A stretch of DNA of 18,356 nt. Source: an uncultured archaeon (GTDB lineage Archaea; Asgardarchaeota; Lokiarchaeia; Sigyniarchaeales; SOKP01). The stretch is from assembly GCA_964447495.1 (NCBI GenBank), contig CAYUTF010000052.1, positions 2,056 to 20,411 on the forward strand, in the 5' to 3' direction. A model generated the notes under the pieces. That model was not told the DNA's origin. It searched no databases and saw nothing but the letters and a program-made list of their open reading frames with translations. Below, in pieces: positions 13,058 through 15,732 of the stretch. Each line of letters begins with the position of its first letter. Position 1 is the first letter of the stretch. The translations under genes were made by a program, and so were the position numbers.

Positions 13058-14500
13058 ATGCCAATTGGTATAAAAAGTTATGGAGCATATTTGCCAAAAT
13101 ACTTGCTCCCGAGAGATCTTATTGCGAAAGCTTGGGATTTTCCAAATGTTCCTGGTACAAAAGCAATTGCGATGGCTGATGAAGATAGTATTACCATGTC
13201 TGTGGAAGCGGGATTAGACTGCTTAGCAGGAATCGATCCTAAAACTGTCGATGGAATTTTCTTTGCTTCTACGACTCAAGTATATACAGAAAAGGATTCT
13301 GCCTCACTAATTGCTACTGTGCTAGATATGAGAGAAGATATAATAACTGTTGATTTTACAGATTCCACCAAAGCCGCTACTACTGCTCTTACGCGAGCGG
13401 TAGATACCATAAAAGCAAATAAGGATATAAAAAGCATTCTTGTCGTTTCTGCAGATACCAGAGCACCCGAGCCTTCCACAATGTGGGAATTTGGATTCGC
13501 AGATGGCGCTGCCGCACTTCTTGTGGCTGAAGAAGATAATCTTCCCTTATCTATCGAAGATTATTATTCAATCTCTGCAAATGTTACGGGACCTTGGAAA
13601 AGAGCAAATAAGGATAAATTTATTCGAACTTTCGAAGTTAAAATGGATGCGAAATTCTACGTAGAAAGTATCACTAAAGTAATGGCAGAAATACTTAAAA
13701 GAAATAATCTCAAACCTGAAGAAATCGATGCTGCAGCATATTACTATAATAACCCACGAATGCATGGACGAATCTCAAAAATTATGAAATTTGGACAAGG
13801 TGTTGCTCAAAATAGCCTATTCTTTCAAATAGGCGACACAGGTACACCTATGCCTTTCATGCTATTAATCGCGGCTCTTAGAAGACCTAAAGATGACGCA
13901 AAAATAATTATGACTGGCTATGGCGATGGTGCTGATGCTATCTTACTACAAGTACGCGATAAAGGCGCATTACGAGACCTTGGAAAATCACGATTAGGGC
14001 TTATTGGTCATCAAAAATCTATGATAATCACTAATAACTATAATAAATTTGTGGATTTCAAAGAATTACTTGAAAAAGATAGATACATCCGAAAAAGCTC
14101 CGCTGTGACCGTATGGAGAGATACTGCCTCGGTTTATAAATGGTACGGTGTTAAATGTAAGAATTGTGGAACAGTCCAATATCCTGACCTCTCTCGATCG
14201 TGTTATGTATGCAGAGCTGATGACCCATTCGAACATGTAAAACTTTTACTCCACGGAACGATATTTACTTACACCCTTGACCACTTAGTGGGTGGTGCGT
14301 ATCTTCAAACTCCCGTGCCTCGATGTGTTATCGATTTAGATGGCGGTGGTAGAGTTCTACTTAATATGACTGAAATCGAAAATCCTGAGGAAAATGTCCA
14401 TATTGGGATGAAAGTCGAGATGACCTTCAGAAAAGAACACGAAGGTGCCGAATTTAAAAATTATTATTGGAAATGTAGACCCGAAAGGGGGAGAAAATAA
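13058..14500 (+). CDS. KASIII/HMG-CoA-synthase-like domain fused to DUF35 (Zn-ribbon + OB-fold) domain
   Basis: GIKSYGAYLP, DEDSITM, FASTT, DGAAALL, IGDTG and GYGDGADA motifs. C-terminal CKNC...CYVC zinc ribbon and GTIFTYT...GGRV...IGMKVEMTFR...YYWK OB-fold. RBS GAGGT at 13042-13046. Confidence 0.9.
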   Translation: MPIGIKSYGAYLPKYLLPRDLIAKAWDFPNVPGTKAIAMADEDSITMSVEAGLDCLAGIDPKTVDGIFFASTTQVYTEKDSASLIATVLDMREDIITVDFTDSTKAATTALTRAVDTIKANKDIKSILVVSADTRAPEPSTMWEFGFADGAAALLVAEEDNLPLSIEDYYSISANVTGPWKRANKDKFIRTFEVKMDAKFYVESITKVMAEILKRNNLKPEEIDAAAYYYNNPRMHGRISKIMKFGQGVAQNSLFFQIGDTGTPMPFMLLIAALRRPKDDAKIIMTGYGDGADAILLQVRDKGALRDLGKSRLGLIGHQKSMIITNNYNKFVDFKELLEKDRYIRKSSAVTVWRDTASVYKWYGVKCKNCGTVQYPDLSRSCYVCRADDPFEHVKLLLHGTIFTYTLDHLVGGAYLQTPVPRCVIDLDGGGRVLLNMTEIENPEENVHIGMKVEMTFRKEHEGAEFKNYYWKCRPERGRK

Positions 14501-14514: not shown

Positions 14515-15732
14515 ATGGCAAGAAAAGGTATTAGTGATAAAGTAGCAATCATCGGCTGCGATATGACAAAATATGGTGAACTATGGGATAAAAGTCAATA
14601 CGACCTGCTCTTCGAGGCAGTTCAATCCGCGACAAAAGATGCCGGAATTACCAAAGATGAGATTGATGCGACCTGGATCGGTATATTTTACTTTTTTACC
14701 GGCTTATCCGGTGCAATGGTAGAAGATATATTAAAGCTAGATGGAAAACCCGCTACTCGTATAGAAAATTACTGTGCTTCGGGAATGGACGCTTTCAGAA
14801 ATGCAAGCTTCGCCATTGCTTCTGGTGCATACGATGTAGCTCTCGCTTGTGGAGTAGAGAAGCTCATGGACGAAGGTGGAAGTGGTTTACCCGGATTCAC
14901 TTTATTTGGGCATCCATTATACCCTACTCCATCAGCACCAGCTATGTTTTCGATGGCAGCAACAAGATGTTTCCACGAGTTTGGTTGGACAAAGGAGGAT
15001 TTAGCCCGAGTTGCGGTAAAGAATCATGACAATGGTTCCTATCATCCAAAAGCACACTTTCGAAGCAAGATTACAATTGAGGCTGCGATGAAAGCACCAA
15101 TGATTGCTGACCCTCTGGGCCGATTCGACTGCTGCGCAAAAAATTAGCTAATTAAGCTAATTTACGTAGTGTCAGACGGATCTGCCGCACTAATTCTTAC
15201 AACGCCCGAATTAGCAGAGAGTTATGCCCACGCAGATGACTACATTCTCGTAAAAGCAAATGCGATCTCATGTAGGACTAATTTCCCATGGTATGTTCCC
15301 GCAAACGGGCCTGGTGCCGACTTTACATCCTTTCCGTCCACAGTACAAGCTGCACAATATGCGTATAAAGAAGCAGGAATTACTGATCCTCGCAAGCAAA
15401 TTGATTGCGCAGAGGTACATGACTGTTTCACAATAACTGAACTAGTAAATTGCCAGGATCTACAATTTTGCGATCGTGGTAAAGCAGCTGAGGAATTAAA
15501 GAATGGAACATTTAACTGGGATGGTGAGACTGCTGTGAATCCGTCAGGCGGACTTAAGTCTTTTGGTCATCCTATTGGATCAACAGGCTGTCGTATGCTA
15601 ACCGAAATCACAAAACAATTACAAGGACGCGCAGAAGGTCGCCAAGTTCCCGATGCTAAGATTGGCTTATGCCATAACCTTGGTGGCGCATTTAGTGTGT
15701 GTTCTACGACCGTATTAAGTCAACGAGATTAA
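14515..15732 (+). CDS. SCP2-type thiolase (acetyl-CoA acetyltransferase family), interrupted by a 30-nt in-frame stop-containing insert; 395 aa if the insert is removed
   Basis: ORFs 14515-15147 and 15169-15732 are in the same frame and are the two halves of one thiolase. Motifs: ENYCASG (catalytic Cys), GVEK, KNH.NG..HP.AH, DCCA|(M/V)SDGSAA, EVHDCFT, NPSGG, GHPIGSTG, HNLGG. No other lesion was seen. Confidence 0.9.
15140..15169 (+). other. Candidate BHB-type archaeal mRNA intron (30 nt)
   Basis: 9-bp hairpin AAATTAGCT/AGCTAATTT; 3-nt bulges AAA (15138-15140) and AGT (15168-15170) flank a 4-bp helix GCGC/ACGT (one C-A mismatch); exon-exon helix 15122-15133/15171-15182. Excision restores DCCAMSDG. 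Confidence 0.6.

Follow-up and report, generated by a model that had tools for sequence, protein, structure and literature searches.

A candidate bulge-helix-bulge mini-intron in a thiolase gene of an Asgard archaeon, and similar inserts in four further protein genes

The stretch of DNA analysed here (18,356 nt, hereafter the window) carries a thiolase gene that is interrupted inside a conserved motif by 30 nt containing stops. The first-half ORF (14515..15147) terminates in ...GRFDCCAKN followed by a TAG at 15145-15147, while the second-half ORF (15169..15732) has a GTG start and the sequence SDGSAA...; Pfam detects Thiolase_N on the first half (E 9.1e-19) and Thiolase_C_1 on the second (E 2.1e-37). 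Within 15140-15169 the forward-frame stops are TAG at 15145 and TAA at 15149 and at 15153. The ORFs, the Pfam matches and a base count all confirm the reading of the initial annotation, namely a 30-nt stop-containing insert in an otherwise intact thiolase. The host genome (G000) is a metagenome assembly of 3.81 Mb in 223 contigs with 31% G+C, and its closest relatives are Promethearchaeota/Promethearchaeia, in agreement with the Asgard host that had been suggested. This genome has no second close copy of the thiolase, the next-best matches within it being only 33-38% identical.

With the read-through protein as query, we first examined 41 related genomes and subsequently the whole family (135 genomes). 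Most orthologues are uninterrupted, with a length of 1185 nt and two codons, Ala-Met, separating DCC and SDG; among the distinct intron-less alleles, 74 of 75 read DCCAM and the remaining one DCCAI. Met arises only when A15139 is joined to T15170-G15171, and 30-nt removals shifted by -1 or +1 produce Val or Lys. The junction DCCAMSDG, which had been predicted from cuts between 15139 and 15140 and between 15169 and 15170, matches these 74 uninterrupted alleles and is the top of 450 local candidates (position, length) under bulge-tolerant scoring. The bulge rule and the Met codon of the 74/75 intron-less alleles together define the end point of exon 1 in Table 1.

From these comparisons we consider it likely that 15140-15169 is a mini-intron of the bulge-helix-bulge (BHB) type, spliced from the mRNA by EndA and RtcB. 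We infer cleavage, ligation and the exact cut sites as follows. The thiolase gene would be transcribed with the insert included; the flanking coding sequence would pair and the insert would form a 9-bp hairpin, so that two 3-nt bulges face each other across a short central helix. The two-subunit EndA of the host would then cut behind the second base of each bulge, and joining of the exons by RtcB would restore both the frame and the conserved DCCAM-SDG, with the freed 30-mer probably being circularised.

Table 1. Positions of the thiolase gene parts, of the predicted RNA elements and of the inserts in other genes. Plain numbers are window positions; C and L denote contigs and loci of the genomes named.
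Feature	Position	Strand	Basis or remark
Upstream partner gene, HMGS-like fold fused to DUF35 zinc ribbon/OB	13058..14500	+	Pfam
Thiolase exon 1, from the start codon to A15139 (predicted 5' cut behind it)	14515..15139	+	ORF, Pfam Thiolase_N
Candidate mini-intron, 30 nt, 7/30 G+C, stops in all three frames	15140..15169	+	Missing from most orthologues
Thiolase exon 2; opens with TG of the Met codon (T15170-G15171), stop codon 15730-15732	15170..15732	+	ORF, Pfam Thiolase_C_1, orthologue alignment
Exon-exon helix h, exon-1 strand	15122..15133	+	RNAalifold: helix kept in 10/10 alleles
Central helix H, 5' strand GCGC	15134..15137	+	Faces 15164-15167, 3 pairs and a C.A mismatch
5' bulge AAA, predicted cut between 15139 and 15140	15138..15140	+	Geometry; AA/A pattern (slash, cut) at most other sites
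Intron hairpin h', 9 bp, 5-nt loop	15141..15163	+	Fold; pairs kept despite two-sided changes, 10 alleles
Central helix H, 3' strand ACGU	15164..15167	+	Faces 15134-15137
3' bulge AGU, predicted cut between 15169 and 15170	15168..15170	+	Geometry; first bulge base A at 9/10 sites
Exon-exon helix h, exon-2 strand	15171..15182	+	Pairs with 15122-15133, 10/12
Partner-gene insert carriers	L070-L073		G064, G065, G063, G068, another genus of the family
MoxR-like AAA+ ATPase, two 30-nt stop-containing inserts	G000 C2:82983-83012, C2:82689-82718	minus	Loci L157/L159
RtcB insert, 29 nt, frame-shifting, codon 49/50	L175:1235-1263 (G015), L176:1233-1261 (G001)	minus	
ABC-transporter ATPase insert, 31 nt, frame-shifting, within ...LDEPT/TGVD...	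G000 C22:2930-2960	minus	Loci L259/L260

The predicted structure is stable for its composition. The 81-nt stretch that contains it folds at -27.9 kcal/mol compared with -16.9 +/- 2.8 for shuffled sequences (z -3.97), and 0/200 shuffles fold as well. All nine pairs of the stem 15141-15149/15155-15163 are perfect, and the two strands of the central helix oppose each other as G-U, C-G and G-C followed by the C.A mismatch. An Rfam search of 14900-15400 returned no family at E up to 1. Inteins and group I/II introns were rejected on sequence alone, the insert being too short and containing stops. Every pair of the fold originally drawn by hand exists, but the minimum-energy fold shifts the central helix by 1-2 pairs (15132-36/15165-69). 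The exon-exon helix has 7-10 of 12 pairs (mean 8.4) in intron-less alleles versus 9-10 of 12 in intron-bearing ones (75 and 4 alleles, respectively). This helix arises largely from the coding sequence itself, and could account for the usability of the site without being a sign of selection for pairing.

The shifted helix bears directly on where the RNA would be cut. A competing register one base off (UGCG/CGUA) forms 4/4 pairs in the central helix and is favoured by both the minimum-energy fold and gapless scoring; under the same cutting rule it would excise 32 nt, with loss of the frame. At this site, designated 623 after its position in the reference (also site C), pairing in a register one base off is at least as extensive as in the productive register for each of the four alleles first examined; three of these alleles show a C.A mismatch in the productive register and the fourth (G024) has C-G there; in the alleles of relatives the productive register has 2-3 of 4 pairs. 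The bulge pattern across sites is mostly AA/A on the 5' side and A-N/N on the 3' side (slash marking the cut), to which the register first proposed conforms and the competing one does not. It is plausible for a relaxed motif that a well-formed 5' bulge and hairpin position the enzyme, as we infer here. The window intron displays the BHB motif in a relaxed form, whereas the central helix has 4/4 pairs at thiolase sites A, B, D and E, at ATPase site 312 and in RtcB.

This difference between the energetically preferred and the productive register is one reason to consider that the insert is removed or skipped in another way, whether by ribosomal bypassing, by a different RNase and ligase, or by EndA acting in a different register (Val/Lys or a shorter loop). 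One orthologue does have Val at the junction position, and 30-nt excisions shifted by one base in either direction would stay in frame. We nevertheless judge such a route unlikely, because all site-C alleles keep the A ahead of the 5' cut and the TG behind the 3' cut that a Met junction requires, and because at other sites the canonical cut rule directly yields the orthologue sequence. Bypass elements, such as that of T4 gene 60 and the mitochondrial 'byp' elements of a yeast, are likewise short stop-containing inserts in intact frames, and they depend on take-off and landing codons that match. The thiolase insert offers no such pair: the take-off codons ahead of the stop lack a matching in-frame landing codon in both G000 and G015, and a programmed translational bypass element was rejected on this ground.

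Splicing by EndA and RtcB at the Met junction is further supported by other alleles of the same site. At site 623 an insert is likewise found in G015 (30 nt), in G024 (31 nt) and in G147, which belongs to another genus (29 nt), as well as in 11/75 metagenome loci. The sequences of these inserts differ widely, all form the hairpin, and the differences in length are due to single bulged bases in the stem. RNAalifold identified two-sided changes in 6/20 pairs for four alleles and in 7/19 pairs for 10 distinct alleles, with the hairpin and the exon-exon helix kept throughout; inserts at the same site with compensatory changes, named in advance as strong support, were thus found. No metagenome locus of at least 99% identity spans the junction, and the best one (98%) begins downstream of it.

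The initial annotation had treated the insert as a rare single case, and this part of its reading did not hold: the insert is one of many in the lineage. Ten sites in five genes are occupied, and all 29 examined instances are 29-31 nt long. The genes are the thiolase (five sites), the HMGS-like partner, the MoxR-like ATPase, the ABC ATPase and RtcB, and G000 itself contains at least four inserts. For the thiolase, 13 inserts were detected in 10 of 105 matching genomes, at reference nt 274, 282, 347, 623 and 893, with three in the gene of G015 and two in that of G016. Frame-shifting inserts of 29 or 31 nt occur at thiolase sites A and B, at site C in G024 and G147, in RtcB and in the ABC ATPase. 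Since many inserts shift the frame, they must be removed and not read through. The thiolase match in G085, a one-contig genome (L067/L076), covers only residues 182-395 and is preceded by unrelated DNA; this gene may be truncated, fused, or interrupted by something much larger.

The four other genes were found to be interrupted in different subsets of genomes. The protein of the upstream partner gene has Pfam matches only to ACP_syn_III and two DUF35 domains, with no HMG-CoA-synthase match, and its insert (30 nt, two stops, at nt 68) is present in 4/102 matching genomes. Both inserts of the MoxR-like ATPase have canonical BHB geometry and surfaced through the structure scan of G000; they are absent from most of 106 matching genomes, with one of them present in each of G017, G127 and G128. 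The ATPase insert at C2:82983-83012 is identical in 19/30 bases, with conserved ends, to the site-893 thiolase intron of G022 and G015, a likeness that hints at movement between genes. Insertion into the ABC ATPase was discovered through a paralogue alignment across the junction and confirmed by orthologues: 5/9 loci have the insert and 4/9 read straight through, the insert being common to G133, G132, G139 and G018 and missing in G021, G131, G127 and G020. RtcB had been picked in advance as a conserved test gene, and its insert, with a central helix of 4/4 pairs and a hairpin of 8/8, occurs in 2/41 matching genomes of the genus. The ligase message of an insert-bearing RtcB would itself need the ligase, and an intron in this gene suggests, speculatively, feedback control.

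For 22 instances we scored the motif over all 450 position-length combinations available locally, with positions -6 to -3 of exon 1 pairing with positions -6 to -3 of the intron, a hairpin from intron position +2 to -7, and cuts behind the second bulge base. The junction consistent with the orthologues ranks top in 13/22 instances by the truth set of the script; the window allele raises this count to 14, as its top candidate gives Met like the orthologues and the placement by the aligner gives Val. At least one instance is ranked first at 7/8 scored sites, five further instances are second or third, and for RtcB the top-scoring candidate yields the right product in 2/2. Covariation in the central helix accompanies synonymous exon changes at thiolase site A (T:A versus C:G) and at ATPase site 576 (C:G versus T:A).

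Whole-genome structure scans for BHB geometry with a bridged reading frame, using a mirror-image topology as control, gave 228 motif hits versus 228 control hits and 364 versus 372. At a minimum of eight hairpin pairs the figures were 930 versus 823, places with the bulge pattern numbered 21 versus 16, and cut-offs on hairpin energy did not separate the real motif from the mirror control. The thiolase and ATPase inserts are among the hits, but given the lack of an excess over control, structure alone is weak evidence in this A+T-rich genome. A paralogue census, in which predicted spliced proteins were blasted against the ORFs of the same genome, detected 22 clean junction-spanning places versus 13 in the control, and inspection left the thiolase and the ABC ATPase as the sole convincing cases. 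The case for splicing is built on comparative evidence.

Selection on the thiolase provides a separate line of such evidence. Between G000 and G015, which have an insert in common, dN/dS is 0.044 (dS 1.7); two further insert-sharing pairs have values of 0.018 and 0.087, and the insert-bearing allele of G000 compared with an insert-free allele gives 0.040. With the inserts removed, 10/10 insert-bearing thiolase genes are full length with 0 internal stops. Evolution has been constrained with the insert in place, which implies that the insert must be eliminated before or during expression. The relaxed selection that would mark a pseudogene had been put forward as a possible outcome, and the range of 0.02-0.09 among insert-sharing alleles instead points to strong purifying selection.

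These values, equal to those of intact alleles, make it very unlikely that the insert is an inactivating one, produced by slippage or by a tiny mobile DNA element, and that the thiolase is a pseudogene. Every frame of the insert has a stop, as inactivation would have it, and several sites are flanked by short direct repeats (5 nt at site 623 of G015) that resemble target-site duplications. The repeats arise because the central helix is palindromic and the bulges are A-rich. Against inactivation, none of the 10 insert-bearing genes has another defect, the gene of G015 being otherwise perfect despite three inserts, and diverged genomes are occupied at the same site with compensatory changes in the hairpin. 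Nor was a multi-copy identical element found: a search of the 135 genomes for the intron pattern shared by site D and the ATPase recovered only three known copies, one intron type in 3/135 genomes, and looser local patterns gave chance hits. A miniature transposable element was rejected as a candidate on this count, on the sequence differences among sites and on the selection acting on the host genes.

Less probable again is a genuinely split gene: each half would have its own translation start, that of exon 2 being the GTG at 15169, and the two products would combine into a thiolase. Exon 2 does start with GTG here and with ATG or TTG in other site-C alleles, but ATG and TTG are found there because the junction residue is Met. 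The G147 allele has CTG, 15169 is not preceded by a Shine-Dalgarno-like run, and at other sites the exon boundaries come without a start codon. Such an arrangement would need four fragments for the thiolase of G015 and a 49-residue fragment in RtcB, and would leave the conserved hairpin and the exon pairing without a role. An artefact of assembly or sequencing, which a metagenome assembly of 223 contigs might invite, is scarcely credible, because a 588-nt contig from an independent DNA run (X2) covers 14949-15536, insert included, with 0 differences, the DNA-level check that had been called for, and because related inserts occur in many differently named assemblies.

The machinery that a spliced mini-intron would require is encoded in the host genome. 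G000 has two EndA paralogues (PF01974 twice above cut-off) and one RtcB (PF01139 once), and several of its tRNA genes carry BHB-type introns. A His with a catalytic role in EndA is retained in the first paralogue, whose nearest PDB chain is 3p1z_B ('tRNA-splicing endonuclease', E 8e-36), and replaced by Ser in the second, for which 1a79 gives the best alignment. The presence of two paralogues suggests a two-subunit enzyme, and they would be the alpha and beta subunits of an EndA with broad specificity. Non-canonical introns are described in PMC5829648 as being cut only by the (alpha-beta)2 and epsilon2 types of EndA, and a 2026 preprint on Asgard tRNA introns gives two EndA paralogues for 44/60 Asgard genomes. 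Contigs from RNA libraries (three runs, X12-X14) cover 14642-14990 and 15177-15732 of the window, and none bridges the insert site.

Three other features of these genomes were observed in passing. A cluster of 16 tRNA genes on the same strand occupies 13 kb of G000 (C80:10-13035), tRNA genes elsewhere being scattered, and may belong to a mobile element, a virus or a contaminating contig. Aragorn reports a tRNA-SeC at C19:39251-39343 of G000. Two thiolase-family paralogues (G007:C21:120066-121262 and G013:C177:6727-7923) have an in-frame TGA, for which selenocysteine or a broken gene are both possible.

Taken across the five genes, we lean towards a broader reading, held with less confidence than that of the window insert: that in the Asgard family Promethearchaeia uniform tRNA-type introns of 29-31 nt have repeatedly colonised protein genes, up to three per gene and including RtcB, and that mRNA splicing is routine there. 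Should these inserts be spliced, BHB introns would extend beyond stable RNAs and be able to spread across genes of the proteome, and the question of how Asgard tRNA-type introns arrive could be put to the test in protein genes, a second and far larger class of hosts, where the reading frame provides an independent check on each intron boundary. Splicing would also mean that gene callers systematically break or mis-annotate Asgard genes, among them the thiolase and two ATPases here and RtcB in relatives; interrupted protein genes could be far more frequent in Asgard archaea than is recognised. The lineage nearest to eukaryotes would, on the same condition, already tolerate an intron-exon structure and obligatory mRNA ligation by RtcB.

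Among known systems, HAC1/XBP1 of eukaryotes is a case of a short, frame-changing mRNA intron that is handled without the spliceosome: an endonuclease cuts it out and RtcB joins the exons. The ligation chemistry still in use in eukaryotes for XBP1/HAC1 is the same as that proposed here, and RtcB and XBP-1 are both mentioned in the abstract of PMC8718801. The HAC1/XBP1 system differs from the inserts described here in using Ire1 and another recognition motif, and in acting as a regulated stress switch. Within the archaea, the cbf5 pre-mRNA of Crenarchaeota is given in PMC2738675 as the sole archaeal pre-mRNA with confirmed splicing as of 2009. A cbf5-type intron as such was rejected for the window, in which the host gene is a thiolase and the relatives are Promethearchaeota. 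As with the cbf5 intron in the account of PMC2738675, some lineages have the insert and others do not; that account concerns one gene, with one intron, in a different phylum, whereas here there are 10 sites in five unrelated genes, at most three per gene, 29-31 nt long and with predicted splicing.

Our literature search found no report of BHB introns in protein genes or mRNAs of Asgard archaea, although further papers could exist. The hosts in the 2026 preprint are tRNA genes; its available text uses 'protein-coding' once, for neighbour genes matching tRNA loci, and 'mRNA' never. The likeness to the tRNA introns it describes is nevertheless close, in that the motif and the enzymes are the same, gains have been repeated and independent, and position is limited to exon sequence that is able to build half of the motif.
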